Assembly: GCA_038882655.1 (NCBI GenBank)
Contig: JAVZNT010000003.1
Coordinates: 12,411 to 76,410, forward strand
Reading direction: 5' to 3'
Length of the DNA: 64,000 bases
Origin: Candidatus Bathyarchaeia archaeon
GTDB taxonomy: Archaea > Thermoproteota > Bathyarchaeia > Bathyarchaeales > Bathycorpusculaceae
Shown: in pieces, positions 9,684 to 46,646 of the stretch
How positions within the stretch are numbered: the first letter of the stretch is position 1
Layout: each line of letters starts with the position of its first letter
Position numbers and translations under genes: made by a program
The notes under the pieces: generated by a model
Seen by the model: only the letters and a program-made list of their open reading frames with translations
Told to the model about the DNA's origin: nothing
Databases searched by the model: none

Positions 9684-9729
9684 GCCATAAACGATTTATC
9701 TTCGTTTGTTTTGCTATCCACAGATAACA

Positions 9730-9975: not shown

Positions 9976-9981
9976 GCTGAA

Positions 9982-11067
9982 ATGTTTGAGCATTTTAAAA
10001 AATTTAGAGATCCAAATTTAGCGAAACATGTCGTAGAGAAAATCTGTGAAATTGCCCCTAGACGTGATGTTGTAAAAATATGCCACGTCTGTGGCACTCA
10101 CGAGTGGACAATAACCCATTTCGGTCTGAGAAGCCTCCTACCCCAAAATGTTGAAGTTATAGCCGGTCCGGGATGTCCAGTGTGCATAACGCCAGCCTCT
10201 GAAATAGATGAGGCTGTGCAACTTGCCCTAAAAGGAGTTGCTGTCGCATGTTTTGGGGATGCCCTCCGTGTGCCCGGTTCTGAAAAATCGCTGTTAAATG
10301 CTAAAGCTGAGGGCGCCGATGTCAGAGTTGTCTACAGTGCATTAGACGCCGTAAGAATAGCTGAAAAAGAGCCGGGCAAAGAGTTCTCTTTCTTCGCCAT
10401 AGGCTTTGAAACAACAGCGCCATCAACAGCCGTAGAAATCCTAAAAAAGCCACCAAAAAATCTAAGCTTTCTAGTTTCCCATCGTTTGATCCCGCCAGCA
10501 ATGGAACTTCTCCTCGGAATAGGCGACCTTCACATAGACGGTTTCATTGCCCCTGGACATGTAAGCACTATTATAGGCTTAAAAGCCTATGAAATATTTC
10601 CAAAAGCTTACCGCATGCCCACAGTGGTGGCGGGCTTTGAACCATTAGATGTTCTGCTCGCCATTTACATGGTTCTTAAACAATTGAAAGAGGGAAGGCC
10701 GCGCTTAGAAAACGAGTATACTCGCGCGGTAACATATGAGGGAAACGTGAAAGCCCAGCAAATTATGAACGAAGTCTTTGAGGTTGTTGGAGGAAATTGG
10801 CGGGGTCTCGGAAGGCTTCCCAACTCAGCCTTAAAGCTGCAAGATAAATACATTGGTTATGATGCACGAGAAAATTTCAATGTTATGGTTAGGCATGGCG
10901 CGGACATATTGCCCGGCTGCCAGTGCCATTTGGTAATAATTGGCAAGATAAAACCGACAGAATGCCCATTATTTATGAAAGCTTGTACTCCTCAAAATCC
11001 AATTGGCGCTTGTATGGTAAGTATAGAAGGAACCTGCCGCATATGGGCGCACGTCTACAATCTTTAG
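9982..11067 (+). CDS. hypD: hydrogenase maturation protein HypD
   Basis: Motifs GPGCPVCITP and GFETTAP, plus the C-terminal Cys cluster GCQCH...CPLF...GACMVSIEGTC. Confidence 0.95.
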   Translation: MFEHFKKFRDPNLAKHVVEKICEIAPRRDVVKICHVCGTHEWTITHFGLRSLLPQNVEVIAGPGCPVCITPASEIDEAVQLALKGVAVACFGDALRVPGSEKSLLNAKAEGADVRVVYSALDAVRIAEKEPGKEFSFFAIGFETTAPSTAVEILKKPPKNLSFLVSHRLIPPAMELLLGIGDLHIDGFIAPGHVSTIIGLKAYEIFPKAYRMPTVVAGFEPLDVLLAIYMVLKQLKEGRPRLENEYTRAVTYEGNVKAQQIMNEVFEVVGGNWRGLGRLPNSALKLQDKYIGYDARENFNVMVRHGADILPGCQCHLVIIGKIKPTECPLFMKACTPQNPIGACMVSIEGTCRIWAHVYNL

Positions 11068-11147
11068 GGACGACGTGACAAGAATTAAATATTATAAAGG
11101 CATAGTTAAGGTAAAGCTGAAGGAGGATAAAGGACGAGGTGAAGAAA

Positions 11148-11294
11148 ATGTCTGAAAAATCCTATGAAAAAGATATAGCCGAATTAAAGGAGAGGGTAAT
11201 ACGTCTAGAAATTCAGTTGGCAGAGCTTAACAAACGTGTTGAATCGCTCAGCAACTATTCCCGCCAGTTATTTGAATACCTCTCAAGAAAATAA
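11148..11294 (+). CDS. hypothetical small coiled-coil protein (48 aa)
   Basis: Not in the ORF track because it is under 60 aa. The ATG is preceded by GAAGGAGGATAAAGG. Heptad-like sequence IAELKERVIRLEIQLAELNKRVESL. Coding status is uncertain. Confidence 0.35.
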   Translation: MSEKSYEKDIAELKERVIRLEIQLAELNKRVESLSNYSRQLFEYLSRK

Positions 11295-11322
11295 AGATGA
11301 AATAAGATAAAAAGGGGACCCC

Positions 11323-11775
11323 CTATACCGGCGGGGGTGGTGGTGGGGCCTCAACACGAGCTTCAGGCTTCCATATCAAACCAAGTATGCCTCCGATTAA
11401 AGCCAAGATGAAACCTATGTAGAACCCGCTTGCAGTGAATAGGCTTAGAATGGAAAATATTAAAACCATAATGGATCCTTTTCTAACCTTGTCTTTTTCT
11501 CCAGAATTAATCATTAAAGCACCGACTAGTACAAGTATGCCGAAGACCAGCCCTACTATGCAGATGATGAGAAACATTAAGAAAAAGGCGCCTATAGCAC
11601 CACTAACACCCTCCATGCCAGGAACCATGCCAGCAAACTGGCCGATAAATCCGCCGACCATGCTTAGAAAAATGGCATAGACCAAGACGAGCACAGACTG
11701 TATGATTATCAATATGGCCCCAACTAGAGATAGCGCAAAAGCCACTGTAGGTTTTTCTCCCAAGATTTTCACCAA
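11323..11775 (-). CDS. integral membrane protein with a C-terminal hexaproline tail
   Basis: Four predicted TM helices rich in G/I/L. Ends ...EAPPPPPPV. Confidence 0.7.
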   Translation of the reverse strand: MVKILGEKPTVAFALSLVGAILIIIQSVLVLVYAIFLSMVGGFIGQFAGMVPGMEGVSGAIGAFFLMFLIICIVGLVFGILVLVGALMINSGEKDKVRKGSIMVLIFSILSLFTASGFYIGFILALIGGILGLIWKPEARVEAPPPPPPV

Positions 11776-11966
11776 ACTATAGGTTCAGGCTACTTGTATA
11801 TTAAATTAACTACTTACATGCAAAACTGTACTTTCCCTTGTTTCAATTATAGGTCAACTATTAAAAGCCCATAGTTGCAGCATTGTTGATTAACAAAAGT
11901 GTCGGCATGAACACATAAGTTTTATAAAGATTATAAAGCAGAATAAAACGCAAAGAGGAGAATAAT

Positions 11967-12209
11967 ATGGCTATCATGCAAGGAGAATGGCTATTGTTTG
12001 GTGGAGCTTGCCTAATACCGTTAATTTGGTTTATTGTTGCGATAATATTGTGCATATGGGTTTACAAGGATGCAGAATCGCGGGGAATGAATGGCGCCTT
12101 ATGGCTCATTATTGTGCTTCTTGCCGGTTTGCTGGGGCTTATAATATACTTAATTGTTAGGAAAGAGGAAAAACCGAGTCGACCTGCACCACCGCCGCCA
12201 CCACCATAA
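11967..12209 (+). CDS. small membrane protein, PLD-nuclease N-terminal (PLDc_N)-like, with a C-terminal hexaproline tail
   Basis: Two TM helices flank VYKDAESRGMNGALW...IYLIVRKEE, the pattern of the PLDc_N small membrane domain. Ends RPAPPPPPP. Confidence 0.65.
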   Translation: MAIMQGEWLLFGGACLIPLIWFIVAIILCIWVYKDAESRGMNGALWLIIVLLAGLLGLIIYLIVRKEEKPSRPAPPPPPP

Positions 12210-12245
12210 AAACGGCTTCAACAATTTTACGGATGGCGTGTTCAA

Positions 12246-12914
12246 ATGTCATGGGTAGAGGAAATAATCAATTTCTTCAACTTTATTGGAGGTTTGGTCT
12301 GCCACCAGAAGCCAGAAAGAACTTTGGTGGTGGGCGGTTACCCTCTCCCGGTGTGTGCAAGAGATACGGGTGCGTATATTGGACTTGATATGGGTTATAT
12401 AACGCTACTATTTCTCAGAAATAAGGATGCAAGTGGTCCCCCTAACTTACTTTTAACACTGGTTATGTCAGCACCCTTATATGTGGACTCTTTTGGACAG
12501 TTTTTCAGATTTTGGACCAGTAACAACGATTTAAGACTTTTTACGGGAATCCTTTTTGGGATGTCCCTTGCACCATTTCTGGTCTACACACTTTCGCTTT
12601 TCTTTTTTAAAGGCAAAATTCCATTGTTGAGAAGGATTCAGCCAAAAAATGCGGATTTAAATGCAAAGGATTCATGGTTTAATACTAAAGCTATAGGAGC
12701 AAACATGCTTATTTCAATTCTTTTATTCACTGGTATTAAATTAATTGCAAGCAGCGGATTCTACTTATTCTACTGGCTGCTAAGCATACCTATAATTTCA
12801 GGAGTGGTTTGGCATTTCTTTATTCTTTTGCCCCTCTTAGTGGCAATAACGCTAGTGCATTACTTTAGAAATAGGCTTAGTATAAAAATGCGAAATTATC
12901 ATGGCCAGAAATAG
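12246..12914 (+). CDS. DUF2085-like membrane protein
   Basis: N-terminal CHQKPERTL...PLPVCARDTGAYIG motif followed by several TM helices. Confidence 0.65.
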   Translation: MSWVEEIINFFNFIGGLVCHQKPERTLVVGGYPLPVCARDTGAYIGLDMGYITLLFLRNKDASGPPNLLLTLVMSAPLYVDSFGQFFRFWTSNNDLRLFTGILFGMSLAPFLVYTLSLFFFKGKIPLLRRIQPKNADLNAKDSWFNTKAIGANMLISILLFTGIKLIASSGFYLFYWLLSIPIISGVVWHFFILLPLLVAITLVHYFRNRLSIKMRNYHGQK

Positions 12915-12915
12915 T

Positions 12916-13986
12916 TTAGCAGATTCTTGGAACAGGGTCACCGAGGGGTCTAGCTATTATCCTTTTGCCACCTACTACTGTTTGCATCGCCACTCCGTCA
13001 AATTCTTTTGTGGCTTCGCCTATAATCTCGGCGTCTCTGCCTTCTTCCGTGGTTTTCAAGAATTGTAAAACTTCTTCGGCTTTCTCTCTTAACACTCCCA
13101 TGATTATTTTGCCTTCGTTTCCAACTTCAAGCGGGTCTAATCCTAGCATCTCGCATGCTGCCCTCACATTCTCTCTTATTGGGATTTTGTCTTCGTGGAT
13201 TAGTATGCCCACTTTTGATTTTTCGCTGAACTCGTTTAGGGCGTCTGCCAATCCGCCGCGGGTTGGGTCTTTAATGGCGACTATGCCGCCAGCCTCGCCT
13301 AACAAACGCTGAATAAGGCGGTTTAAGGGTTTAACATCGGACTTTATTTCGCTTCCAAAGCTCAAACCTTCTTGGGCAGATAAAATCGCTAAGCCATGGT
13401 CGCCTATTGTGCCGGACAATATTATTTTGTCTCCGGGTTTTAGGTTTGAATCGAGAATCCAACGCGCTTCAAAATCGCCCCTAAAGCGTTTAACAACAGC
13501 CAAATTTTTTTCTAAGGCTTCTGTTCTTCTGCCAATTCCAGAAACGTTTACAACGCAGCCACCTAGGCTTCCCTTTTCCACGACCTTTGTGTCACCCGTA
13601 ACAATGCTCACGTTTGCCTCTCGGCATGTCTGCTGCATGCTTACAAGAATCTTTTCAAAATCTGTTAGAGACAAGCCTTCTTCTAGGATAAAGCCGCACG
13701 CCAAAGCATGTGGTTCAGCTCCTAAAGCAGCAATATCATTGACAGTGCCGGAAACAGCCAAACGTCCAATGTCCCCACCTGGGAAAAAGATTGGCTTAAC
13801 AGCGTGGGAGTCGCTTTTCAAAACAATGTCGCCGATGGCTGCGGCGTCGTCTAAAGCCTCGAGGGGCACTTCAAAACTTGTGTTTTCAGCACCGCCAAAG
13901 TATTTTAGAACATATTTTTTAACGAGGTCGTGCATAACTGTTCCGCCGGCGCCATGCAACATCGTGATGTACTCGCTGTTCTTCAT
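12916..13986 (-). CDS. hypE: hydrogenase maturation protein HypE
   Basis: PurM/AIR-synthase-like fold (MLHGAGG, DDAAAI, FPGGDIG) and the diagnostic C-terminal PRIC. Confidence 0.95.
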   Translation of the reverse strand: MKNSEYITMLHGAGGTVMHDLVKKYVLKYFGGAENTSFEVPLEALDDAAAIGDIVLKSDSHAVKPIFFPGGDIGRLAVSGTVNDIAALGAEPHALACGFILEEGLSLTDFEKILVSMQQTCREANVSIVTGDTKVVEKGSLGGCVVNVSGIGRRTEALEKNLAVVKRFRGDFEARWILDSNLKPGDKIILSGTIGDHGLAILSAQEGLSFGSEIKSDVKPLNRLIQRLLGEAGGIVAIKDPTRGGLADALNEFSEKSKVGILIHEDKIPIRENVRAACEMLGLDPLEVGNEGKIIMGVLREKAEEVLQFLKTTEEGRDAEIIGEATKEFDGVAMQTVVGGKRIIARPLGDPVPRIC

Positions 13987-14145
13987 CGAGGTTCACCATC
14001 TTTGTGTCAATAAGGTCTTAGGTTGGACATAAATGCATCGAGGGATTTGCGGAGCCTTGTTGGGCGCGGCGCTTACGGGCTCGATTCACTAAATTGCGGA
14101 AGAGAGTCGTGTTTTGTTGGTGTTAGGCGAACTTCAAAATGTAAT

Positions 14146-14169
14146 GGTTTATGGAAAACCATATAAACC
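14146..14169 (+). promoter_or_regulatory. imperfect palindrome containing a TATA-like element upstream of the ribosomal protein operon
   Basis: GGTTTATGG-aaaa-CCATATAAACC. The ATATAAA element lies about 45 nt upstream of the probable GTG start of uL22, with GGAG at 14197-14200. Confidence 0.3.
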
Positions 14170-14210
14170 GCCATGTAGCTGTTCAATTGCACAGTTGGAG
14201 AGTCTATCGA

Positions 14211-14702
14211 GTGCCAAAATGGGGATACTCCATACCAGAAGAGGCATTAGATCCCGAGAAAACGGTTAAGGCAAGTGGACGTGAGGTTAGGGTGTCCCAT
14301 AAATCCGCCTGCGAAGTATGCAGTGCAATAAAGGACATGATGCTCACAGAAGCCAAAAAGTTTCTAAGAGATGTTATAACCAAAAAGAAGGCTGTCCCAT
14401 TCACAAGATTTAAAAAGAAGGCTGCCCACCGCCACGGACTGGAAAAGGCTTATGCTGGCAGATATCCGGTGAAAGCGGCAAAGCAGATTCTGAAAATCCT
14501 TCAAGGCGCGGAAGCCAACGCTGAAAACAAGGGATTAGACACGGAAAGACTCAAAATAATTCACGCCTCAGCCTATCCTGGAATGAAGATTAAGCGTTAT
14601 ATGCCGAGGGCTTCTGGAAGAGCCACGCCGAAATTTGAAACTCTAACCCATATTGAACTAGCCTTAGAAGAGCAGCCTGAGGCAGTCACGGAGGAAGCCT
14701 AA
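14211..14702 (+). CDS. rpl22: 50S ribosomal protein uL22
   Basis: PKWGYSIPEEALDPEKTVKASGREVRVSHK matches archaeal uL22 N-termini. A GTG at 14211 preceded by GGAG is the probable start. The ORF track ATG at 14151 would add a 20-aa atypical extension. Confidence 0.9.
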   Translation: MPKWGYSIPEEALDPEKTVKASGREVRVSHKSACEVCSAIKDMMLTEAKKFLRDVITKKKAVPFTRFKKKAAHRHGLEKAYAGRYPVKAAKQILKILQGAEANAENKGLDTERLKIIHASAYPGMKIKRYMPRASGRATPKFETLTHIELALEEQPEAVTEEA

Positions 14703-15389
14703 ATGGCTGTTGTAAAACATTTTATCTTAAAGTCTAGGAAAAGAACGGAAATCGATGAGTTTCTGCAGAAAAAACTTGAAAAGGCTGGTTATGGTGGGGT
14801 AAACGTCTCAGAGACCCCGCTTGGGACTCACGTAGTTATTTACGCTATGCGCCCCGGACTTGTGATAGGGCGAAGTGGTGAAACCATAAGGGAACTTGCG
14901 AAGATATTGGAAGAGAGATTCAATGTTTCAAATCCGCAAATTTCAGTCTCTGAAATTGAAGTTCCGGAGCTGAATCCGTACATCGTCGCTACGCGTGTAG
15001 CCTCTGCCTTGCAACGGGGCGTGCACTTTAGGCGCGCGGGCTTCTGGGCTTTAAATCAGGTTATAGAGGCTGGAGCTTTAGGAGCGGAGATAATTATTAG
15101 CGGGAAACTGCGAACAGAAAGAGCCAGATATGAGAAATTTAGGAGTGGCTACTTGCCCAAATGTGGAGACCCGGCTTTAAAGTATATGCGTAAAGCCGAA
15201 GTGCATGTTCAGCTTAAACCTGGTATTTTCGGCGTCAAGGTTAGGATAATGCCTCCGGACGCCAAGTTTCCGGACAAAATCCAGATAGTTGAAGCTCCAC
15301 CAGCAGAGGAAAAGCTCGGAGAGACCGTTGAAGAGGTTCCAGAAGAGACCGAAAGGACAAGCGAAGAGGGAGAAGAGGAGGCAACTTAG
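14703..15389 (+). CDS. rps3: 30S ribosomal protein uS3
   Basis: KH-domain sequence (GLVIGRSGETIRELAKILEE), operon position after uL22, and an acidic C-terminal tail. Confidence 0.95.
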   Translation: MAVVKHFILKSRKRTEIDEFLQKKLEKAGYGGVNVSETPLGTHVVIYAMRPGLVIGRSGETIRELAKILEERFNVSNPQISVSEIEVPELNPYIVATRVASALQRGVHFRRAGFWALNQVIEAGALGAEIIISGKLRTERARYEKFRSGYLPKCGDPALKYMRKAEVHVQLKPGIFGVKVRIMPPDAKFPDKIQIVEAPPAEEKLGETVEEVPEETERTSEEGEEEAT

Positions 15390-15392
15390 TAG

Positions 15393-15632
15393 ATGCCAAT
15401 AATTAGGGTTAAGGAGATAAGGGAGATGTCTTCTGAAGAGCGGCTTAAAAAGCTCAACGAGTTTAGGACAGAACTCCTTAGACTAAAGACTATGGTGAAA
15501 GCTGGCGGCACCGTAGAAAATCCTGCAAGGATTAAAGAGTTGCGGAGGGCAATTGCTAGAATATTGACAATAGAAAACGAGCAAAAGCTGGAGGCTAAAA
15601 CAGTAGAAGGCAAGGAGAGGATGAGCAAATGA
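15393..15632 (+). CDS. rpl29: 50S ribosomal protein uL29
   Basis: 79-aa helical protein (ELRTELLRLKT...) in the conserved operon position. Confidence 0.9.
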   Translation: MPIIRVKEIREMSSEERLKKLNEFRTELLRLKTMVKAGGTVENPARIKELRRAIARILTIENEQKLEAKTVEGKERMSK

Positions 15633-15910
15633 AGGTGACGTCGGACATAATACGCTACGCGTTTATTGGAGCAGAGGCGAAAGTAACCAGGAGCACTAAT
15701 CATGGTTATGTTGGGTTACGCGGCAAGATAATTGACGAGACACGTAACACGTTTACCATACTCCATAACGGTGAAAGAAAAATTGTTGTAAAAGAGTCTT
15801 CTATTTTTTGTTTCAAGTTTTCCGATGGAACCGTTGTTGAAATTGATGGTAAGCTTCTTGTTGGAAGACCCGAAGACCGCCTTAAAAAACGCGTTAGGAG
15901 GCTTTGGTAA
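15629..15910 (+). CDS. rnp1: RNase P protein component 1 (Rpp29/Pop4)
   Basis: 93 aa, located between uL29 and uS17 as in most archaea. Sm-like core GLRGKIIDETRNTFTI. Confidence 0.85.
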   Translation: MKVTSDIIRYAFIGAEAKVTRSTNHGYVGLRGKIIDETRNTFTILHNGERKIVVKESSIFCFKFSDGTVVEIDGKLLVGRPEDRLKKRVRRLW

Positions 15911-16230
15911 TGGCAATAACTCTTAAAAAGCCTAAGAAAACATGCAATGATCGGAACTGCCCATTCCATGGGAGTCTTCCAATAAGAGGCCGCATATTAG
16001 AAGGCGTGGTTGTAAGCGCGAAAATGGATAAAACCGTGATAGTGCGCCACGACTATCTGAAATATGTTTCAAAGTTCATGCGATATGAAAGGCGACGCAG
16101 TCGCATACCTTCTCATAACCCGCCATGTATAGATGCAAAAGAAGGCGACCGTGTTGTAATAGCTGAATGTCGACCAATAAGTAAGACCGTCTCCTTTGTG
16201 GTTGTAGAGAAGAAGGAGGAGGCGAAATAG
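15904..16230 (+). CDS. rps17: 30S ribosomal protein uS17
   Basis: [34 protein letters not shown] is typical of archaeal uS17. Confidence 0.95.
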
Positions 16231-16232
16231 GA

Positions 16233-16673
16233 ATGGCAGCGAAGGCAAAAACAAGAGGCTTGGTTGCGAAGGGAGTAATTGGTCAAAGGCCAAAAATCTC
16301 TAGGGGGCTGCCAGCCGGCTCCATTCTGAGGTGTGCAGACAACACCGGGGCCCGAGAACTGCGCCTAATACAAGTTATGGGTTATAAGGGTAGGCTTAGG
16401 CGTGTGCCTTCCGCTGCTGTCGGTGACCGCATAACTGTTTCGGTTAGGCATGGCACGCCAGACATGCGAAAGAAAATCTTTCAAGCAGTTGTTGTCAGGC
16501 AAAGAATGCCCTTCAGAAGGGCTGACGGCATCTGGGTTCAATTTGAAGACAACGCGGCAGTTATAATAACCCCAGAAGGCGAAATGAAGGGCTCTGAAAT
16601 TCGCGGGCCGGTGGCGAAGGAGGCAGCTGAAAGGTGGCCAAGAATAGCAAGCGCTGCCAGCATCATAATATAG
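16233..16673 (+). CDS. rpl14: 50S ribosomal protein uL14
   Basis: [15 protein letters not shown]...GDRITVSV...AVVVRQR is typical of uL14. Confidence 0.95.
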
Positions 16674-16688
16674 CGTGGTGAGATTTGT

Positions 16689-17312
16689 ATGCAGACAATA
16701 ACCCAAACATCAAAGCCTTCAAAACAAAGGAAAATGCTGTTCCAAGCCCCGGACCACGTACGCTATAAGCATTTTGCCGCCATCTTGGCGCCCGAGCTAA
16801 GAAAGTCTTATGGAACTAGAAGCCTTCCGGTGAGGAGCGGCGACACCGTTCGCGTATTGAGAGGAGACCATAAAGGGTTTGAGGGGAAAGTTGCCCGTGT
16901 TGACAGAAGAAAGTTCAGGATTTACGTTGAAGGCTTAACTCGAGAAAAGGTTGACGGCTCAACAGTCTTTGTTCCAATCCACCCATCGAAGGTTATGATA
17001 ACAAAGCTTAACGTAGACGACAAGTGGCGAAAGAAAATTCTGGAAAGGCGGAAGAAAGCCAAAGAAGTTGCGGAAAAAATGGTTGAGAAACCCCCAGAGG
17101 AAGTAGTGAAGGTTGTTGAAGAAAAACTAGCTGAGGAAAAGCCTCCAGCCGTAGAAGAGCTACCATCCAAAGAGAAGAAGCCAGTGAGGAGAAAAAGAGC
17201 CGCAAAGAAGCCGAAGGAAAAAGTAGAAGAAAAAATGGAGGAAGAAGCGCCGGAGAAGAAGAAAGGGGCTGTAAGAAGGCGCAAAAAAGAGGAGGGGTCT
17301 GAGCTTGGGTAG
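16689..17312 (+). CDS. rpl24: 50S ribosomal protein uL24 with a long Lys/Glu-rich C-terminal extension
   Basis: KOW region GDTVRVLRGDHKGFEGKVARVD. About 85 extra K/E/P-rich residues follow from roughly nt 17046 onward. Confidence 0.9.
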   Translation: MQTITQTSKPSKQRKMLFQAPDHVRYKHFAAILAPELRKSYGTRSLPVRSGDTVRVLRGDHKGFEGKVARVDRRKFRIYVEGLTREKVDGSTVFVPIHPSKVMITKLNVDDKWRKKILERRKKAKEVAEKMVEKPPEEVVKVVEEKLAEEKPPAVEELPSKEKKPVRRKRAAKKPKEKVEEKMEEEAPEKKKGAVRRRKKEEGSELG

Positions 17313-18063
17313 GAAAGGCGGCTCAACAACCCTTAAACGCAAGCCAGCACCAAGAATCTGGCCGATACATAGGAAAGAGTTCGTTTGGGTTGTAAAACCA
17401 ACCTCTGGTCCCCATTCTTTGAAGAGTTGTCTACCTATAACATTGCTTTTGCGTGACATCTTGGGAGTTGCAAAAACAAGGAAGGAAGCAGAAATAATAA
17501 CTGCGCAAGGGAAAGTTTACGTTGACGGGAGAGTTAGGCGAGACGACAAGTTTCCAACGGGACTTATGGATGTAGTCTCGCTTCTTGACATGAATAAATA
17601 CTTCCGCATTTTACCGTCACATAAGGGTTTAATCCTCCATCCAGTAAGCAGAGAGGAAGCCAACTTCAAGCTTTGCAGAATAGAGAGCAAGACGGTGGTG
17701 AAGAACGGGCATGTACAGCTGAATCTTCACGATGGCTCAAATATTCTCGTTAAGGTTGCTGACCCGAAGAATCCGCAAGAAGATGTTTACAGCAGCTTTG
17801 ACACTATTAAGATTAGTCTTCCGGATAGGCAAATTCTCGAACACATTAAGATGAAGGAGAACGATTATGTGATAATAACCAGCGGCAAAAACATGGGAAA
17901 GCATGGCAAAATTGTAGAAATTGAGAAGGTTAAGGGTAAAAAACGCAAAGACGCCATAGTAACAGTAGAAGATGAGAAGGGCAACCGCTACCAGACAGTA
18001 ATGGAGTTCGTTTTTGCAATAGGCGAGACAAAACCGCTGATATCCTTGCCGGAGGCTCAATAG
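17305..18063 (+). CDS. rps4e: 30S ribosomal protein eS4
   Basis: GSTTLKRKPAPRIWPIHRKE...TGLMDVVS is typical of eS4. The TTG start overlaps the uL24 stop. Confidence 0.95.
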   Translation: MGRKGGSTTLKRKPAPRIWPIHRKEFVWVVKPTSGPHSLKSCLPITLLLRDILGVAKTRKEAEIITAQGKVYVDGRVRRDDKFPTGLMDVVSLLDMNKYFRILPSHKGLILHPVSREEANFKLCRIESKTVVKNGHVQLNLHDGSNILVKVADPKNPQEDVYSSFDTIKISLPDRQILEHIKMKENDYVIITSGKNMGKHGKIVEIEKVKGKKRKDAIVTVEDEKGNRYQTVMEFVFAIGETKPLISLPEAQ

Positions 18064-35898: not shown

Positions 35899-35987
35899 CT
35901 TAAAAACTTGTTTCTATTTTGGGCAAAATCTGTGGGAAAACCTAAATGCATGTTCGTCTTGATTATCGAGTTGTCAGGTTGGTTGTC

Positions 35988-36362
35988 ATGGCGGAAGAGG
36001 AAGACCCCGTTAAACTCCACAAGGATGGAAATACCCTTTACGAGCTTGGCAAATATGAAGAAGCTAAAGGAAAGTTTTTAAAAGCCTCTGAACTTTACAG
36101 GAAGGCAAATAACTTCTTTGATTCCGCCTATGCGCTTTTCAAGGCTGGTGAATGCGCTTTCATGCTGAAGGACTATGCTGGCGCGGTTGAATATTTCCTG
36201 AAGTCTGCAGAGCTCTCATTTCAAAAGGGCTTTGACAGATTCGGCGTCAGCGCTTTGGAGTATGCCAGAGACTGTTATAAGGCTTTAGACGAAAAAGAGA
36301 AAGTCTCGGAGACTGAGAAGAAGATAAAGGAAGTTAAGGCGAAGCTTGAAGAGTCCTTCTGA
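35988..36362 (+). CDS. small TPR-like helical protein
   Basis: GNTLYELGKYEEAKGKFLKASELYRKANNFFDSAYALFKAGECAFMLKDYAGAVEYFLKSAE. The ATG at 35988 is preferred over the track start at 35946. Confidence 0.6.
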   Translation: MAEEEDPVKLHKDGNTLYELGKYEEAKGKFLKASELYRKANNFFDSAYALFKAGECAFMLKDYAGAVEYFLKSAELSFQKGFDRFGVSALEYARDCYKALDEKEKVSETEKKIKEVKAKLEESF

Positions 36363-39280: not shown

Positions 39281-39353
39281 GCCGGGGTGGCCGAACGGTT
39301 CAGGCGGCTGCCTGCAGAGCAGCTATATGTGGGTTCAACTCCCACCCCCGGCT
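39281..39353 (+). tRNA. tRNA-Cys (GCA)
   Basis: Cloverleaf folded by hand. Acceptor GCCGGGG/CCCCGGC, anticodon stem GCTGC/GCAGC with loop CTGCAGA (anticodon GCA, G37), T arm GTGGG-TTCAACT-CCCAC, discriminator U73. No intron and no encoded CCA. Confidence 0.9.
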
Positions 39354-39361
39354 CTGCACTG
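39332..39361 (+). repeat. tRNA-Cys 3' end plus 8 nt of downstream flank (copy 1 of a degenerate direct repeat, candidate att site)
   Basis: GGTTCAACTCCCACCCCCGGCTCTGCACTG. A partial second copy lies at 44253-44279. Confidence 0.5.
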
Positions 39362-39368
39362 AAGCAAC

Positions 39369-39527
39369 TCACTTAAGTTTCCTGAAGAACTTTGCTCCAT
39401 TATGGTCACAAACATATTCAAAACCAGCCTCTACGAGCTCCGTTATCTTCTCATTCGAAGTTGCGACTTTACAAATGTAATCATCTTTGTGTTTCCAAAG
39501 TTTAAAATTGTGTATATTAGTGTGTTC
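39369..39527 (-). pseudogene. start-less 52-codon remnant of a protein C-terminus abutting the tRNA-Cys 3' end
   Basis: The minus-strand frame reads EHTNIHNFKLWKHKDDYICKVATSNEKITELVEAGFEYVCDHNGAKFFRKLK-stop. It is bounded upstream by an in-frame TAA and has no start codon. The stop lies 16 nt from the tRNA end. Confidence 0.45.
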
Positions 39528-39682
39528 TTAATGTTTTTGCGGTACTCTAAAGTGGTGTTCCGATGTTTAAAAGCAGCATTGATGTCGTTAAAGGGAGGCG
39601 CATTAGGAAGTCTTCTTTAAAGTCTAATCGGTTAGGGAAAGCTTTTCTAAAAGCATGCGCACTGTTTATATGGTCTGTCAGC

Positions 39683-42600
39683 ATGCCTGAGGGCTTGAAG
39701 GTTGAGCGTTTTCTTCGTCAAGCGGAAAAAATGGAAGGAAAGTATGAGTGGCTGGAAGCTGCTGAGTCCTACAAGAAAGCGTTGAGTCTGTTGCCGCCAC
39801 GCGAATTTCTTAAGGTAGGCGACGTGTACGAGCATATAAGCTATGCTTTTTATCGAGCAGCAATGCAATCTGGGAGTTTAAACGAATTTAGGAGCAGGAT
39901 GAGCCAAGCTGTTGTTAATTGCGAGCGGGCAAGAGCTTCATATGCTAAGCTGAGCACTGCCAAAAGATTACCTCTGATGCTTCGTTGCGATGCCATGGTC
40001 GCATTGGCACATTATTGGCTTGGGTCTTCAGTGTCGGAAAGAAAAAAGCATGCGGATGAATGTTGGCAATTGACAATAAAAGCTCTCGAATTATTCAAGG
40101 AGTCTTCAAACGCTAGAGAATATGGCTTAACTTACAACAGGTTCACAACAAGCGTTCTTTTTGGGTTCTTTGCAGAATGGGATTATGAGACCCGAAGAAA
40201 AAAAGCTACAGAAGCTATAGAAAGCGGAGAGCAGGCAGTTAAGTTTCTTTCCACACGTGGCAATTCTCGCGAGTTAACAACAGCCCTTGTTAAGGTTGCA
40301 AGTTTTCGGGAAATGTTTGGTTTCTATTTCCTTGATTTAGAGGCGAGGAAAGAAGAGTATCAGAGAGCTTTAGACTGTTGGCTTAGAGCTAACGAGCTTT
40401 CTGAAGAAACAGCTTACCATGAATTATTGAATTCTTTTGCCATGGTGATGCTTGAAAACCCTGAATGGGAGTGGGGAACAGAAAAAACGCTTGCGAATAT
40501 TAAGAAAGCGTTGAACTACAGTAAAAAAGCGAGAGATAATCTAACAATCGGGCTTGCACTCGATTGGTTGGGTTTTCATGCTCTTTTCAATGCAGAAACA
40601 TGTGAAGATCCAAAACGTAGGGTTGAACTTACTAAGAAGGCCTTGCAATATGCCGAAGATGCTAAACGTAACTATTCGCGGGTTTGCTTCATCAGTCCAC
40701 TTTGGGGTCCTTTGTGGGTGGAATCTCCTCTTGCTGGCTTCTATTTCGACCTTGCTGCTTGTGCAACGAATCTTAACGAAAGACGCGATTTATTAGAAAA
40801 AGCCAGAGATGCATCAATGGAGTTGCTGAATTGTGCTTATGCGTCTACGTATCCAGAAGTCATAATGTATGCACATCATGTGTTCAGCGATGTTTTATTC
40901 TCATTTGCTCATATGGAAACCAATCCTGACAAGAGGCAGCAGCTCCTAGAAGAAGCTATGACACATTCAGATGAGACTGTCAGGATAATCGAGCAGTTTA
41001 TCCCCTATTACTATTGGAAACGTGGTAAGATGCAGAATTCCTTGGCAGACATCAAGTCTGAACTGTCTGATTTGTATAAAGATTTTGAAGTTAAAAAGAG
41101 TTTACTTGAGGAAGCTGTGATGGGGAAAGAAAGAACGGTGAAACTTGTTGCAAAGTATGTGAACTTCTGGGAAGGCATAGGGCCTATTCCACCATTGGTC
41201 GCCAATTTGGCAGAATGGCAATTCCAATACGGAGTCTTGCTAAGTCGCCTCGGCGAGTTCACAAAAAACATTGAATATCTGAAAAAAGCTGCCAAAACCT
41301 TTGAAGAAGCTGCAGCGTCCTTCATGAAGCTTAACCTATTCAGTTACATAGCTCAGTGCTACTGGAAAAAAGGGCAAACCTCCGATGCGTTAGAAGATTA
41401 CTTGACGGCTGCAGCAGATTTTGATACAGCTTCAAAGTATTTCAGAAGAGCCTCAAAGACAATTCCTCAACTGTCACAATTCTATCAAGACTACGCTCGT
41501 TACATGCATGCATGGGCTGAGATTGAAAAAGCCAGACACAACCACAAAACACAGGATTATGAGTCAGCCCGGGAGCATTTCAAGAAAGCTTCCAAAATTC
41601 ATAGGCTGTCGAAGCAATGGAGTTACCTTGCTCTAAACTATGAAGCTTGGGCAGAACTGGAAAGCGCTGAGGCTTTGAGCACAAGAGAGCAAAGTGAAAA
41701 AGCCCTCAAAACTTTCACAAATGCCATTGCAATGTTTAATGAGACGAAAAATTCTCTTCAAGCCCAGCTAAGCAGGATTAAAGATAGAGATGAAATCCAA
41801 ATGGTCGCAAGCATTATTAAAGCCGCATCGTTCAGAACAAAATACTGCAGAGGAAGAATGGCCATAGAAGAAGCAAAGATTCTCGACAGAAAAGGCGACC
41901 ATTATTCTAGCTCGGAAAAATACAGTTCAGCCGCAGAAAATTTTGAAAAAATAATTCAAAATATGGAATCAGAACACTATCGGAACGAACTTGAATTCAT
42001 TTTAATTCTTTGCCGAGCTTGGCAAAAAATGACGAAAGCTGAAGCGGAAGTTTCCCCTTCGTTGTATATGGAGGCGTCAGAGTTGTTTGAACAAGCGAAA
42101 GAGTTTAGCGTAGACGAAAGGTCCAAAATGCTGGCGTTGGGGCATAGTCACTTCTGCAAGGCGCTTGCATCAGGAACAAAATTCGTGGACACAAGAGACA
42201 AACGCCTCTACGCTGTCACTTTACAACACCTAGAAATCGCCTCCAACTACTATCTTAAGGCAGGTTTCAAAAACGCTGTAGAGTACGGAAAAGGCATTGA
42301 ACTGCTTTTCGAGGCTTATATATACATTAACACCGCTAAGAAAGAGAGAGAACCTGAGAAAAAAGTCAAACTTTTCATGATGGCTAAGAAAATTCTGGAA
42401 TCTTCTGCTGAATCATTTCTGAAGGCGAGGCACTTTGAAAAAAGAGAGCAAGTGCTCAAGTTGATCGAAAAAGTGGCGGAAGAACGGACATTAGCTCTTT
42501 CTCTCACCGAGACATTGCATGCTCCAGCTATTATTACGGCTGCATCTACTTTTCCCACTCCAAGTCCAACCAACGAAAAAGCTGTAGGCTTAGAACAATT

Positions 42601-43306
42601 TGAACACGCCAACATACAAGCCTATTTGGTTGCACCCAGAGAAGTAGAGGTTGGAGAGACGTTTGAAGTTAGACTGGATATGACAAATGTCGGCAAAGAG
42701 CCCGGGTTGCTTGTTAGAATTGAGGACCTTGTTTCGTCTGTTCTGAAGATTTCTGGAACTATACCAAAATACAATTTTGATGAAAGCTCGATAGATGTGA
42801 AGGGCAAGCAACTTGAACCTCAGAGAATCGAATCCATCCTTCTTCAAGTCACAGCATTAGGAAGCGGCATCACGCATCTGAGTCCAAAAATAGTCTACAT
42901 TGATAGCCGCGGCAACTTTAAGACGTGTCAAGCCAAACCGACCACATTAACAATTTATCCGATTGGCAAATTTCAGTTTAGAACAGTCAACGCACAAAAA
43001 GTATTTGACTATTTAGCTAAAGCCTTCTCTGACGATTATATGAGAAAGCGGATGCCATTGGAAAAGTCAGGTTGGAGAACGCTCATGCAAATTGTGAAAA
43101 ATGCGCATGTATCAAAGTCAAGTATATACGGCACAGGAGTTCATCGTGGAGTAGGCATGACTGAACTGGAAAGACGAGGCGTCGTTGAAGTCAGAATCTT
43201 CCCAGAAGAAAGAGGAAGAGGCGGAAAAATCACTAAAGCACGCATAGCTTATGAGAGAGATGTGGTAAAGAGGTACATTGACCAGCAGGTTATGAAAATA
43301 AAGTAA
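39683..43306 (+). CDS. very large helical-repeat (TPR-like) protein with a C-terminal Ig-like beta-sandwich and a winged-helix-like domain
   Basis: About 1000 aa of helical hairpins roughly 40 aa each (for example AQCYWKKGQTSDALEDYLTAAADFDTASKYFRRASK). Then VAPREVEVGETFEVRLDMTNVGKEPG...TTLTIYP (beta-sandwich-like). Then WRTLMQIVKNAHVSKSSIYGTG...MTELERRGVVEVRIFPEERGRGGKITKARI (wHTH-like). The ATG at 39683 (MPEGLKVERF) is preferred over the track start at 39563. Confidence 0.75.
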   Translation: MPEGLKVERFLRQAEKMEGKYEWLEAAESYKKALSLLPPREFLKVGDVYEHISYAFYRAAMQSGSLNEFRSRMSQAVVNCERARASYAKLSTAKRLPLMLRCDAMVALAHYWLGSSVSERKKHADECWQLTIKALELFKESSNAREYGLTYNRFTTSVLFGFFAEWDYETRRKKATEAIESGEQAVKFLSTRGNSRELTTALVKVASFREMFGFYFLDLEARKEEYQRALDCWLRANELSEETAYHELLNSFAMVMLENPEWEWGTEKTLANIKKALNYSKKARDNLTIGLALDWLGFHALFNAETCEDPKRRVELTKKALQYAEDAKRNYSRVCFISPLWGPLWVESPLAGFYFDLAACATNLNERRDLLEKARDASMELLNCAYASTYPEVIMYAHHVFSDVLFSFAHMETNPDKRQQLLEEAMTHSDETVRIIEQFIPYYYWKRGKMQNSLADIKSELSDLYKDFEVKKSLLEEAVMGKERTVKLVAKYVNFWEGIGPIPPLVANLAEWQFQYGVLLSRLGEFTKNIEYLKKAAKTFEEAAASFMKLNLFSYIAQCYWKKGQTSDALEDYLTAAADFDTASKYFRRASKTIPQLSQFYQDYARYMHAWAEIEKARHNHKTQDYESAREHFKKASKIHRLSKQWSYLALNYEAWAELESAEALSTREQSEKALKTFTNAIAMFNETKNSLQAQLSRIKDRDEIQMVASIIKAASFRTKYCRGRMAIEEAKILDRKGDHYSSSEKYSSAAENFEKIIQNMESEHYRNELEFILILCRAWQKMTKAEAEVSPSLYMEASELFEQAKEFSVDERSKMLALGHSHFCKALASGTKFVDTRDKRLYAVTLQHLEIASNYYLKAGFKNAVEYGKGIELLFEAYIYINTAKKEREPEKKVKLFMMAKKILESSAESFLKARHFEKREQVLKLIEKVAEERTLALSLTETLHAPAIITAASTFPTPSPTNEKAVGLEQFEHANIQAYLVAPREVEVGETFEVRLDMTNVGKEPGLLVRIEDLVSSVLKISGTIPKYNFDESSIDVKGKQLEPQRIESILLQVTALGSGITHLSPKIVYIDSRGNFKTCQAKPTTLTIYPIGKFQFRTVNAQKVFDYLAKAFSDDYMRKRMPLEKSGWRTLMQIVKNAHVSKSSIYGTGVHRGVGMTELERRGVVEVRIFPEERGRGGKITKARIAYERDVVKRYIDQQVMKIK

Positions 43307-43528
43307 AAATAAAGGTGAACATTCCAGCGCTAAAATGCTGTAATCTCAAAGCCCCAAGTAAATTTGCAGTTTTCAGCTTTGAATCAAGATCCTCCATTCA
43401 AATAGCCATGAAATGACCTGTTTATTATCAAAATAGGCGTTTTTTTACCTTGCATAACATGCAAAAATGCTCTACTATTTTTCCTTCTTTTAAATTAAAT
43501 CAGAAACGGGAAAAGGAGGTGGGATGAT

Positions 43529-44041
43529 ATGAAAGGAAAAATATTACTAGTCATACCCGTTGCACTCTTAGCATTGTCAATTATTCCAGCGAAGGCGGCT
43601 CCTACTTGGTACAATAAAGCTGAAATGGAAATAACAGGCTTTACGTTTATGGGACCTGATCCAGGGGGAAGAGGTCTCCTATTTGATGTAACTTTTGTTG
43701 GAGTTGCTGCTGGACCTAACATCAAAGAGGCAACTGTGGAGGGAGTAGATCATCTTCTCATGGACTGGGAAGGAATTGGCCATTTAGATGTGTACTTGAC
43801 GGATACCGACAAACAAGGTGAAAAAATTTCAGCGCATATTACTGGACTCGCTGTGACCAAGACGCCTGGCCGCATTGTTTTTGAAAATGCACAGGCAACT
43901 GTCATCAACACGGCTGGTTATCCTACTACTGGCAAGTATACTGACCTGATTGGCACCACTTTCAATGTTGAAGGCTTTATTACAGAACTCTCCATCAACC
44001 CTCCAAGTGGGTATATACACGCTAAGTGGTGCTGGACCTAA
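43529..44041 (+). CDS. hypothetical secreted beta-rich protein
   Basis: GGAGGTG lies 7 nt upstream of the ATG. Signal-peptide-like MKGKILLVIPVALLALSIIPAKA. I recognise no family. Confidence 0.65.
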   Translation: MKGKILLVIPVALLALSIIPAKAAPTWYNKAEMEITGFTFMGPDPGGRGLLFDVTFVGVAAGPNIKEATVEGVDHLLMDWEGIGHLDVYLTDTDKQGEKISAHITGLAVTKTPGRIVFENAQATVINTAGYPTTGKYTDLIGTTFNVEGFITELSINPPSGYIHAKWCWT

Positions 44042-44252
44042 ATGAAAAGCCATTCAAATTGGCTTTCCTCCTTTTTAAACGACGCTGAATACAGAGAGGT
44101 GAATTGTTCAAAAAGAACGAAGTATATGTCGAAATTCCGTTCTACTTTCTATAAATCCAGCATAATCCACATTCAAACAGGATGTCTAATCCTGAAATTT
44201 CACTCTTAAAAAGAAAAATGGAAGTTTGCGGGAGATGTCTCCACGCGTTGAT

Positions 44253-44279
44253 GGTTCAACTCCCCCCAACTCTACACTG
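44253..44279 (+). repeat. degenerate second copy of the tRNA-Cys 3' end and flank (candidate distal att site)
   Basis: GGTTCAACTCCCCCCAACTCTACACTG. The first 12 nt are identical to the tRNA T-loop/stem, and CTCT-CACTG matches the flank CTCTGCACTG at 9 of 10 positions. Confidence 0.45.
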
Positions 44280-44406
44280 CTACCCAAATACGAAAGAAGC
44301 TTACCAGTGGTTTCGGCAAAATGTCCATCTTTAACATTTAGGGATAGAATTTTCTTACATAAACGTTTTATGATTAAACATTGAATGTGAAGCGGTGACA
44401 TGAGCT

Positions 44407-45780
44407 TTGGAATATAAATGCTATTGTGGCGCGACCCTGAAATGTTCGCATGATGGAAACTGGTTCTGTCCAAATGGACACCCAGTATACACTTGTAAAA
44501 AATGCGAAGCGCTTGGAAAGAATACTCCACTTCAATGGGTTTCGCAGTATCAACGATGGTATTGTTATGAATGCAGGGAATATGCTTCAAAATCAGTTGC
44601 GGAAGAAAAAATAGAAGAGGAAGAGGAGGTAGGCGGGGAAGAAGAGGAGTTTCTCGACGAAGAAGAATTTCTTGAAGAGGAAGAAGAAGTCGAAGTAAGC
44701 GGCTACATACTCGGCATACCTAGAGGCAGTAGAGTTGACGAATTCTGTTTCATGTGCAAACATCTGAAATTCACACAAAATAATACGCACATCAAATGTG
44801 GTATGAACATCCCCAGATTCTTGGAACCAGCGATTTCAGAGGTCACCATAAGACCAACAGGCGCAGGCAAGGGGATAAGCGGTATATGCGCTCAAGCATC
44901 TTTCATCTCCGACGAGGACGCCCTATTAACTCTTCAAGAATGGCGAGAATTCATTGAGAAAATAGTTGAAAAGCAGATAGAAAATCACGAAGATGAAGCT
45001 GAACCCATCGAAATGTACCGAATTGAATTCGTCGGCGCAACCACCGCAGATGGAGGTGCAAACGCCACCAAGGTACCTGTAAGTCGCGACAGCATTGTTG
45101 GTGGCCGAATCACTGTGACAATTGACAGCGAAAATGAGAAAGTTTGGATTCATGCTGGAACTAAAAAGTCCGGTTTTCTGAGCGGCTTTGCAAAGGTTAT
45201 AGGAGGCATTGCCGGCTCCATGGAAGACTGTTTCAGTGCGCGATTTCTGAGGGATCTACTAAAACGGGATATAGAATCGTTTAGCGTTGAGAAAATATGG
45301 GCTGGAGAGGAGCCTCTGGAGTTTTGGCAGGTTTTGGATAGAGGCGCAAGAGAGCTATCTAGTCAGGCATCTGAGCATGTGTTAGAACAACCTAAATTTG
45401 AAGGTCCTAAGATAGAAATGTACCTGTTAAAGTATCACATGGGAAGGGCATACGGTGAATATTATACTGGAGGCAGAAGTGATAGCGAAACAAAATCAAT
45501 AACTATCGAGCCATTAAAAGCATCCGTTGAAGAACTTCAGTCAAAACGCATGGTAATCGTCATAGATCACCAAGCAAAAATTGTTTGGCACTGGATAGGA
45601 GACAAAAGTGCACGCCTAATGAAGTTCTTCGTAAAAAGAATACCCTCAGATGGACAGTCACGGAGGCATCATTTAGGCATTATTGGAAGTCGAATAGGGC
45701 AAAGCATAGACGATTATGACTATGTCGTAGTCGAAGAGAAAAAGGAACCAGAACAGTTCAAGAGGCTTTTCCAAGCTTAA
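44407..45780 (+). CDS. hypothetical protein: N-terminal zinc ribbons, poly-Glu linker, unknown domain, and two tandem gelsolin-like repeats
   Basis: TTG start immediately after an in-frame TGA. CKKCEALG...RWYCYECREY ribbon. Residues 66-96 are almost pure E. An internal duplication covers aa 200-311 and 335-457, with IEMY..., (T/V)ID...K(V/I)W.H.G.K.S and EEPLEFWQVL / KEPEQFKRLF motifs. Confidence 0.7.
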   Translation: MEYKCYCGATLKCSHDGNWFCPNGHPVYTCKKCEALGKNTPLQWVSQYQRWYCYECREYASKSVAEEKIEEEEEVGGEEEEFLDEEEFLEEEEEVEVSGYILGIPRGSRVDEFCFMCKHLKFTQNNTHIKCGMNIPRFLEPAISEVTIRPTGAGKGISGICAQASFISDEDALLTLQEWREFIEKIVEKQIENHEDEAEPIEMYRIEFVGATTADGGANATKVPVSRDSIVGGRITVTIDSENEKVWIHAGTKKSGFLSGFAKVIGGIAGSMEDCFSARFLRDLLKRDIESFSVEKIWAGEEPLEFWQVLDRGARELSSQASEHVLEQPKFEGPKIEMYLLKYHMGRAYGEYYTGGRSDSETKSITIEPLKASVEELQSKRMVIVIDHQAKIVWHWIGDKSARLMKFFVKRIPSDGQSRRHHLGIIGSRIGQSIDDYDYVVVEEKKEPEQFKRLFQA

Positions 45781-45794
45781 TGTCTGGGAATTAA

Positions 45795-46646
45795 ATGAAT
45801 GTTGAGGCCATCACATTCCTTGCAATTAGCACAATCTACTGGGTACTTGCACTGCGTTATTATTATGGCGTTTCTAAAGAACTGAGTCAGTATGCGCAAA
45901 AACCTCTAAAATCACCTAAAACTAGGACACTCATTATCGCTATTTACGGTTTCGGGCTAACATTATCTTTCGCGCTTGTGGGCCTAAACTCGAAATCAAT
46001 CCTGCTGTCAGCCCTTCGAGGAGGCGCCCCTATTTCAGCTTTCTTTATAATCCTTCTTTCTTTTTTAAGCCCAATTATCAATTATCTTTCTGTTTGCATT
46101 CAAGCTACGAATAGTGTTAATACTATTTTTCTATCCTCTAGCTTTCTGTTGGCAGTTGCTTCCGGCATAGCCATCCTTATTCCCTTCGGCTATGTCCTAT
46201 ATAAAACTCGAAAAGAAATAGAGATGCGCTTTCAAATGGCTACAGGTGGAATGCCTAAAAAACTGCGTGGAGATTTTAAAATGTACAGAACATCTCATGG
46301 AAAGCCGGTTACACGAGGCATATTTGGAGGGCTTATGGGCTTGATTATGTTTCCTTGGTATTTGTACTTTGATTTATTCAAAGCTAAGCAAGGCCTCGTT
46401 GTATATAGAAAAGCGACAACAACCGAATACGACTGGACTTTCGTTGATTCGTCCCATCCTCCGCCCTTTTATGTTAGAGATGAGAGATTAGAGGTGGATA
46501 TAGGAGAGGCGCTCGCTAAAACAGACAAAAGAACTATAAATCATGCCGGCGTCCCTATTTGCCCAAAATGCAAAAAGGCGCTCATCTACTTAGAAGACCA
46601 TCAAAAATGGTGGTGTACCAAGTGCAAAAGAGCCTATATAGAATAA
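45795..46646 (+). CDS. hypothetical membrane protein with a C-terminal zinc ribbon
   Basis: Four or more N-terminal TM helices, one further hydrophobic segment, then CPKCKKALIYLEDHQKWWCTKCKRAY at the extreme C-terminus. Starts 14 nt after the upstream gene. Confidence 0.7.
   Translation: MNVEAITFLAISTIYWVLALRYYYGVSKELSQYAQKPLKSPKTRTLIIAIYGFGLTLSFALVGLNSKSILLSALRGGAPISAFFIILLSFLSPIINYLSVCIQATNSVNTIFLSSSFLLAVASGIAILIPFGYVLYKTRKEIEMRFQMATGGMPKKLRGDFKMYRTSHGKPVTRGIFGGLMGLIMFPWYLYFDLFKAKQGLVVYRKATTTEYDWTFVDSSHPPPFYVRDERLEVDIGEALAKTDKRTINHAGVPICPKCKKALIYLEDHQKWWCTKCKRAYIE

Follow-up and report, generated by a model that had tools for sequence, protein, structure and literature searches.

A 1207-residue TPR-type solenoid protein from a Bathyarchaeia archaeon as a candidate ATPase-less relative of archaeal MalT-like STAND regulators

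The window analysed here is a whole stretch of 64,000 nucleotides from a hot-spring Candidatus Bathyarchaeia archaeon (assembly GCA_038882655.1, contig JAVZNT010000003.1, positions 12,411 to 76,410), in which a gene lying next to a tRNA-Cys gene encodes P0001, a protein of 1207 amino acids (aa). We favour, with slightly better than even confidence, the view that P0001 is a one-component-type sensor and transcription regulator, an ATPase-less relative of the archaeal MalT/AfsR-like STAND regulators. The protein contains, in order, ~955 aa of TPR-type repeats, a probable immunoglobulin-like (Ig-like) beta-sandwich and a basic tail of 112 aa. A layout of this kind, with a solenoid protein of ~1200 aa ending in an Ig-like and a C-terminal segment and devoid of any NTPase, had been proposed in a sequence-only reading of the window and is confirmed by our analysis. 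The coding sequence and its parts are as follows.

39683..43306, + strand: P0001 coding sequence, 1207 aa, stop codon counted in.
39683..42547, + strand: TPR-type alpha-solenoid, residues 1-955, defined by Pfam, family profile, self-comparison and hhalign.
42548..42967, + strand: probable Ig-like beta-sandwich of the DUF11/BatD/TRAP-beta type, residues 956-1095, with a conserved linker ahead of it and sub-threshold matches.
42968..43303, + strand: basic 112-aa module, residues 1096-1207, in which a leading helix precedes what is probably a winged helix of the Cdc6_C-like kind.

Kinship with STAND regulators became apparent from the module formed by the Ig-like domain and the tail, which is also found apart from the solenoid. 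A scan of the genome collection revealed 29 loci bearing this module, 25 of which belong by title to Bathyarchaeota/Bathyarchaeia and one each to Thermoplasmatota, Baldrarchaeota, Heimdallarchaeota and a "Thermoproteota archaeon". Four of these loci encode full-length solenoid proteins and six encode proteins with an N-terminal GEAGxGKT Walker A motif. The Walker-A-bearing proteins that were scanned all contain Pfam AAA_16 (5/5), and three of the five match the MalT-like TPR (PF17874), one over the cut-off (45.6 bits) and two more under it. These archaeal AAA_16 STAND-TPR-Ig-winged-helix proteins (for example L018, L022, L027, L033 and L036), uncharacterised proteins from Bathyarchaeia and a Baldrarchaeota metagenome-assembled genome, are built like P0001 from roughly its residue 400 to the end, with a homologous TPR array, the linker, the Ig-like domain and the tail arranged in that order. 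They begin with a Walker-A AAA_16 domain, whereas P0001 carries a further TPR array at that place. Using hhalign, the solenoid family profile was aligned over residues 403-1207 with 23 Walker-A-bearing relatives (E 1.3e-62). Once the Ig-like domain and the tail were left aside, solenoid residues 24-440 and 403-763 each matched the ~400-aa TPR region of the STAND proteins (E 6e-13 and 5e-9), whereas the solenoid did not match the ATPase region (NOD) of the 23 relatives (0.4% probability). Since the solenoid resembles the TPR region of the STAND proteins but not their ATPase region, we regard P0001 as an ATPase-less relative of archaeal MalT-like regulators: its solenoid is homologous to the C-terminal TPR-type sensor array of the STAND family, and it lacks the P-loop NTPase oligomerisation region with its Walker A motif. 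Judging from these alignments, the solenoid corresponds roughly to two ~400-aa TPR arrays of the STAND type with an additional stretch, the second array taking the place of the ATPase region.

The absence of a Walker A motif, previously judged by eye, was verified in several ways in addition to the hhalign comparison with the NOD. A motif search of all 1207 aa retrieved neither GxxxxGK[ST] nor GK[ST], while Pfam and NCBIfam scans of P0001 revealed no NTPase or other enzyme family; NCBIfam returned spurious low scores only, and the KaiC/RecA-like domain (PF06745) was not found in the Pfam scan. The sequence-only reading had likened the protein to STAND/MalT-type regulators deprived of their ATPase, and this comparison is now supported by the occurrence of the same Ig-like domain and tail at the end of AAA_16 proteins and by the homology of the TPR arrays. 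The DNA-binding domain of MalT is LuxR-type. Like MalT of E. coli and AfsR, P0001 combines in one polypeptide a TPR-like sensor superhelix and a DNA-binding domain, the latter being predicted in P0001; unlike them, it is archaeal, lacks the ATP-driven oligomerisation module and carries an extra Ig-like domain, and its candidate DNA-binding domain is Cdc6_C-like rather than LuxR-type (MalT) or SARP (AfsR). AfsR is laid out as SARP, NOD and TPR (PMC10936776). A limited literature search found no paper on the solenoid family, the Ig-winged-helix module or the STAND-TPR-Ig-winged-helix proteins.

The repeated TPR/SNAP-like helical hairpins perceived earlier by eye were borne out by Pfam, by matches to TPR structures and by internal repeats. 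Scanned alone, residues 501-955 scored over the cut-offs of TPR_12 (37.6 bits, cut-off 30.1), TPR_1 (30.8, cut-off 27.8) and TPR_14 (25.1, cut-off 23.5); in the whole-protein Pfam scan the TPR matches were slightly under cut-off. Among solved TPR proteins, the solenoid family profile matched engineered CTPR (7e-6), APPBP2 (2.8e-5), alpha-SNAP (0.002) and LGN/Pins (0.003), while a whole-protein search of PDB sequences with P0001 gave no match. For the self-comparison, 120-residue slices of the 58-sequence family alignment were compared by hhalign. Internal repeats within the N-terminal 600 residues were detected with probabilities of 91.6-96.9% and E-values down to 1.7e-10: residues 121-240 matched residues 241-360 (96.9%, E 1.7e-10) and 361-480 (95.6%), and residues 241-360 matched 361-480 (96.5%). 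Self-similarity is weaker in residues 601-955, the best slice comparison reaching 69%. A eukaryote-like SNAP or TRAPP kinship was considered and rejected, the SNAP and TRAPPC13 scores reflecting generic TPR and Ig-fold signals. An ESM Atlas search with the homologue P0029 retrieved only unnamed clusters of the same family, none of them with a structure.

Nearly every sub-threshold match of residues 956-1095 is to a family of Ig-like beta-sandwiches. Among 24 members, DUF11 was matched in nine (best E 0.0074), BatD in seven and TRAPPC13_N in four, and the relative P0039 matched TRAP_beta under cut-off (E 6e-4); the segment of P0001 itself matched DUF11 alone (E 0.13). The Ig-winged-helix module is 53% identical in G025 and 41-57% identical across the loci that bear it.

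The tail of P0001 is strongly basic. It carries a net charge of +13 over 112 aa, to be compared with +4 over the 955 aa of the solenoid and -3 for the Ig-like domain. Thirty-one tail copies taken from very different proteins were aligned with a mean column identity of 58%, and the invariant columns include G-W-R and R-G-R-G-G. The tail of P0001 has no Pfam match and no Pfam model covers the tail family. When the tail profile was compared with the PDB, the best match was the winged helix of Sulfolobus Orc1/Cdc6-3 (2qby_B, residues 324-367, E 0.092). Cdc6_C (PF09079, gathering score 25.1 bits) is the sole Pfam family recurring among tail members, in 8 of the 31 and always sub-threshold (best E 0.0081), while the tail of P0001 does not match it at E<=10. 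Comparison by hhalign with the Cdc6_C domains of nine Orc1 proteins, all taken from related genomes, gave P-values of 0.0011-0.0013 over the last helix and the wing; 12 controls, for which reversed alignments, the Ig-like domain, eight slices of the solenoid and the ATPase region of STAND proteins were used, ranged from 0.04 to 0.73. Because these three weak sequence tests agree on the winged helix of Orc1/Cdc6, we consider the assignment of the tail to a Cdc6_C-like winged helix suggestive. The resemblance of the tail to the Orc1/Cdc6 winged helix (2qby_B) extends over its last helix and a basic wing formed by a beta-hairpin (ELE.RG..E.R-F-GERGRGG aligned with ELD..G....R-.-RGRAGG), but the tail scores far under the Cdc6_C family threshold, is not joined to an AAA+ ATPase, and adds a leading helix and its own invariant G-W-R motif. 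Nucleic-acid binding by the tail is possible and would fit both the Cdc6_C-type similarity and the charge. A genome-wide scan for PF09079 retrieved two frames only, both Orc1/Cdc6-sized (432 and 414 aa). The idea that the leading helix might be a remnant of the STAND helical domain was rejected (MalT E 0.45; hhalign against the STAND NOD P 0.42).

A search of 1.84 billion cluster representatives (50% identity clusters) with the tail profile showed that the family is sharply bounded, with 462 clusters at E<=1e-3, 412 at E<=1e-10 and 170 at E<=1e-30. Among the best 150 of the 462 clusters, the tail is mostly C-terminal, including in solenoid and STAND proteins, or stands alone (115-180 aa) or with the Ig-like domain (~250 aa). 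It also lies N-terminal to TPR arrays (P0217, P0231 and P0252) or to a cyclase and TPR (P0244). In P0209, which has a nitroreductase-like domain, it occupies residues 83-193, close to the N-terminus. In the genome-collection scan, L038 combines FIST with the tail and L043 FIST_C and KaiC with the tail (Pfam), while L025 and L032 consist of the Ig-like domain and tail alone. The tail thus seems to behave like a promiscuous output domain placed on sensor domains, as the outputs of one-component systems are. Two proteins, P0122 (388 aa, in which no Pfam family was detected) and P0123 (248 aa), each carry two tandem tail modules.

We predict that the ~955-aa TPR superhelix would offer an input surface for a ligand or a partner protein, that the Ig-like domain and the basic winged helix would form a self-contained DNA-binding output unit, and that occupancy of the solenoid would alter how this unit engages an operator at its presumed target genes.

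The C-terminal end is not constant within the family. The homologue search for P0001 yielded 167 relatives, of which 120 were listed, mostly without a protein name or as "TPR protein" and one labelled Candidatus Bathyarchaeia. Ends were compared in 116 full-length proteins, leaving out the partial sequences P0053, P0063, P0069, P0084 and P0100. The core of ~950-aa solenoid and Ig-like domain is constant in these proteins and the end following the Ig-like domain varies as listed below; Pfam positions of the ends were checked directly in seven proteins, the other KaiC labels being derived from precomputed Pfam tags and tail length.

56 of 116: no C-terminal end (<=12 aa).
35 of 116: KaiC-like end of ~226 aa (PF06745/DUF7504).
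22 of 116: winged-helix end of ~112 aa.
1 of 116: winged helix plus KaiC-like end (P0007).
1 of 116: class III cyclase end (P0061).
1 of 116: CN-hydrolase/nitrilase end (P0076).

The end types cluster on a tree of the core (FastTree, a quick tree only), yet they require at least 14-16 switches, compared with a mean of 50 for shuffled labels. The same solenoid-Ig core may be wired to other outputs in relatives of P0001, chiefly to a KaiC-like domain lacking Walker A. GxxxxGK[ST] was found in none of 37 KaiC-like tails (last 245 residues of each inspected). In these 37 tails, among them P0012, P0018 and P0085, a conserved TSPSCDER-like stretch occupies the position of the P-loop; some of them match DUF7504. 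Given the lack of Walker A and the stretch found in its place, the KaiC-like ends look like inactive modules and are likely to be catalytically dead KaiC-like subunits. An archaeal signalling network of KaiC-like ATPases was reportedly described by Makarova, Galperin and Koonin in 2017. The KaiC-ended relatives recall that network, and their end probably docks onto it, but P0001 itself has no KaiC-like domain and its contig carries no KaiC-like gene. Fusions of inactivated KaiC-like domains to signalling domains are mentioned in PMC5847659. Among 24 other family loci, five contain a stand-alone KaiC-like gene, which is an immediate neighbour in three.

These results bear on a different explanation, in which the family would be a scaffold or adaptor devoid of any DNA-binding role, the solenoid and Ig-like domain assembling a complex and the ends docking KaiC-type ATPases or other partners. 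The tail-less relatives, the lack of Walker A in the KaiC-like tails together with the TSPSCDER-like stretch, the stand-alone KaiC genes at family loci and the joint presence of winged helix and KaiC in P0007 and L043 all speak for it. Three properties of the tail, namely its strong positive charge, its occurrence alone or on classical sensors (FIST, TPR, cyclase) as DNA-binding outputs do, and its sole detectable similarity being to a DNA-contacting winged helix, argue the other way, and we consider a pure scaffold rather unlikely.

Several observations nevertheless weigh against a transcription regulator. The similarity to a DNA-binding domain is weak, with a PDB match at E 0.092, a 20% hhalign probability and nothing in Pfam for the tail of P0001, and Cdc6-type winged helices can serve protein contacts too. 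The largest class of relatives is devoid of an output domain, so that the core function of the solenoid and Ig-like domain needs no DNA binding. No conserved neighbouring target gene was identified in the 24 loci, and no convincing operator-like repeat was found beside the gene (39355-39700 and 43290-43540). Without an ATPase region there is, moreover, no known switch mechanism.

Other observations touch the KaiC-form genes and the tail-less relatives. In 4 of the 24 loci (L098, L099, L101 and L102, from two family-level groups), KaiC-form genes directly adjoin a gene whose product looks by eye like a solute-binding protein of the Liv type. In L099 and L102 the apparent remaining genes of an ABC transporter stand in a row beside the solute-binding gene, while L098 is an alternating array with two such pairs. 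In L091, a 327-aa protein encoded on the minus strand (11955-12938) adjoins the KaiC-form gene; its N-terminal stretch resembles, by eye only, a different winged helix and precedes a KaiC-like domain in which TSPSCDEK replaces Walker A. The opposite flank carries a stand-alone KaiC of 252 aa whose GGPGTGKT is intact. L087 (G302:C14) encodes two tail-less paralogues on the same strand (8251-11562 and 14486-17791), ~3 kb apart.

Family members are patchily distributed. The genome of origin (1.02 Mb, 84% complete) holds one copy of P0001, none of 13 other genomes of the same genus gave a match to this query, and any match was obtained in 7 of 41 relatives' genomes, its own included. Class-wide and at E<=1e-30, matches were found in 50 of 401 genomes; the figure is 35 of 219 for the high-quality genomes and, counted by genus, 30 of 131. 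These counts take in full-length matches and also matches to the Ig-tail module only, and two copies occur in some genomes. Such figures are not those of widespread core proteins, a possibility that would have undermined the earlier proposal. The gene also lies within a region that varies between close relatives. In comparison with three genomes of the same genus, synteny is kept up to tRNA-Cys and returns at a MATE transporter gene, and the cargo of the interval differs in each genome. The relevant features of this region are the following.

39281..39354, + strand: tRNA-Cys(GCA), left border of the variable segment and probable integration site.
39372..39515, - strand: start-less remnant resembling the C-terminus of a tyrosine integrase, by comparison with the G013 integrase.
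43529..44041, + strand: 170-aa protein with an N-terminal hydrophobic leader (by eye), on the same 4.9-kb segment as the solenoid gene.
44253..44267, + strand: imperfect repeat of part of the 3' arm of tRNA-Cys, with 14 of 15 bases identical, near the right border.

The remnant is 27% identical (E 0.05) to residues 268-315, the last 48, of the integrase of G013. In that genome (L015, G013:C1 ~9780-14950), an element of ~5.1 kb occupies the same tRNA-Cys, bears an intact tyrosine integrase first in its cargo, and has on its two sides, 5.1 kb apart, identical copies of 22 or more bases from the 3' end of the tRNA; the called integrase frame extends into the tRNA gene. An insertion/deletion difference was also observed in a hot-spring metagenome (run X3), where a 962-base contig with a depth of 288 joins 39355 to 44300 via 25 unrelated letters. 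It skips 4944 bases corresponding exactly to the solenoid gene and the 170-aa gene, and looks like the "empty site" form. The joint relies on only 27 letters on the tRNA side and the contig was placed at 90% likeness, which makes a related organism a possible source. The accessory character attributed to the gene from its closeness to tRNA-Cys thus holds, given the synteny break running exactly from tRNA-Cys to MATE, the lack of the gene in the 13 genomes of the genus and the X3 contig lacking it. We suggest that it may have been carried into this genome by a small element that integrated at tRNA-Cys.

An insert of 4.9 kb at tRNA-Cys with an integrase remnant, together with patchy distribution and frequent end swapping, could also be expected of a conflict or defence sensor of mobile elements, that is, an Avs-like pattern-recognition TPR protein without ATPase whose variable ends would be effectors. 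The nitrilase tail further resembles CARF-nitrilase/DRT models (E 5e-12) and the cyclase tail weakly resembles PycC (E 0.0017), but each of these ends occurs in a single one of the 116 relatives, and a winged helix is not a typical effector of abortive infection. The role in defence raised by the sequence-only reading found no signature here. No family of PADLOC-DB 2.0 was matched by P0001 at E<=0.01, and the three downstream neighbours and a KaiC-form relative gave no meaningful match, one neighbour having a weak zinc-ribbon match. No known defence gene was recognised by eye among the recurring neighbour clusters of the 24 loci (ten neighbour proteins read), and neither viral contigs (118 pattern matches, none confirmed) nor a plasmid search provided a copy. 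We therefore hold a defence sensor to be distinctly improbable.

The 4.9-kb segment raises another possibility, namely that P0001 is the element's own regulator, a transcription factor for genes of the element such as that of the 170-aa secreted protein rather than for host genes. The two genes are co-directional, 222 bp apart, and lie together on the segment absent from the related strain. No homologue of the 170-aa gene, though, stands beside any of the 24 other family loci, and most family members occur in ordinary chromosomal contexts, which makes this explanation very unlikely. More generally, these 24 loci have no universal neighbour and contain no homologue of the three genes downstream of P0001; the link with the downstream secreted protein, also suggested at first, was not upheld, and a functional link to the downstream genes was rejected.

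Beyond a one-component regulator, a broader and more speculative possibility, to which we give a minor chance, is that the solenoid and Ig-like domain constitute an undescribed ATPase-independent signalling platform of archaea, a sensor of ~1100 aa swapped onto DNA (through a new Cdc6-related winged helix) or onto KaiC-type hexamers (through a dead KaiC-like subunit) and spread on small integrative elements. If so, a TPR sensor would feed directly into the signalling hub proposed for archaeal KaiC. Little of the signal transduction of Bathyarchaeia and other uncultured archaea has been annotated, and the analysis provides three leads: a compact, highly conserved candidate DNA-binding domain without a Pfam model; the occurrence of this domain as output on several kinds of sensor (STAND-TPR, FIST, cyclase-TPR and giant solenoid); and a large family whose MalT-like sensor does without the ATPase switch regarded as central in STAND regulators. 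The same sensor bearing a candidate DNA-binding end, a KaiC-like end without Walker A or no end at all amounts to a natural experiment that could be used for testing the input to archaeal KaiC-like hubs. For annotation, ~170 or more proteins called "hypothetical" or "TPR repeat" would gain a description, along with a candidate new family of transcription factors.

The gene model itself deserves a comment. On the + strand, the frame is open over 39563..43306 (1247 aa), and the start at 39683 giving 1207 aa was preferred because full-length relatives (1200-1210 aa) align from residue 1 of that form. The 40 codons upstream (39563-39682) include a hydrophobic stretch that is not found in relatives, so the longer form may be called by automatic annotation. 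We infer that P0001 is a cytoplasmic protein.

Upstream of the gene, tRNA-Cys(GCA) is found together with genes for a DNA ligase and a ThiF/MoeB-like protein; downstream, genes of 170, 457 and 283 aa are followed by the MATE transporter gene on the opposite strand. The 457-aa and 283-aa genes (44407-46646) are not part of the 4.9-kb segment, though they fall within the variable interval from tRNA-Cys to MATE, and neither gave a Pfam match over cut-off. Of the words sampled from the solenoid gene, 20-96% occur in hot-spring metagenomes of four studies, and the metagenome with the largest share may be the source sample. Run X11, an RNA-Seq library, contains seven small contigs 90-100% like parts of 39371-43282, which does not prove transcription; where runs X5 and X11 leave the sequence uncovered, this carries no information on absence. 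Upstream of the ligase gene, a 138-aa TPR protein (35946-36362) matches TPR_2 over cut-off, with weak SNAP and HEPN scores. Unlike the solenoid gene, it is conserved at 87-89% (translated matches) in the three genomes of the same genus that were compared.

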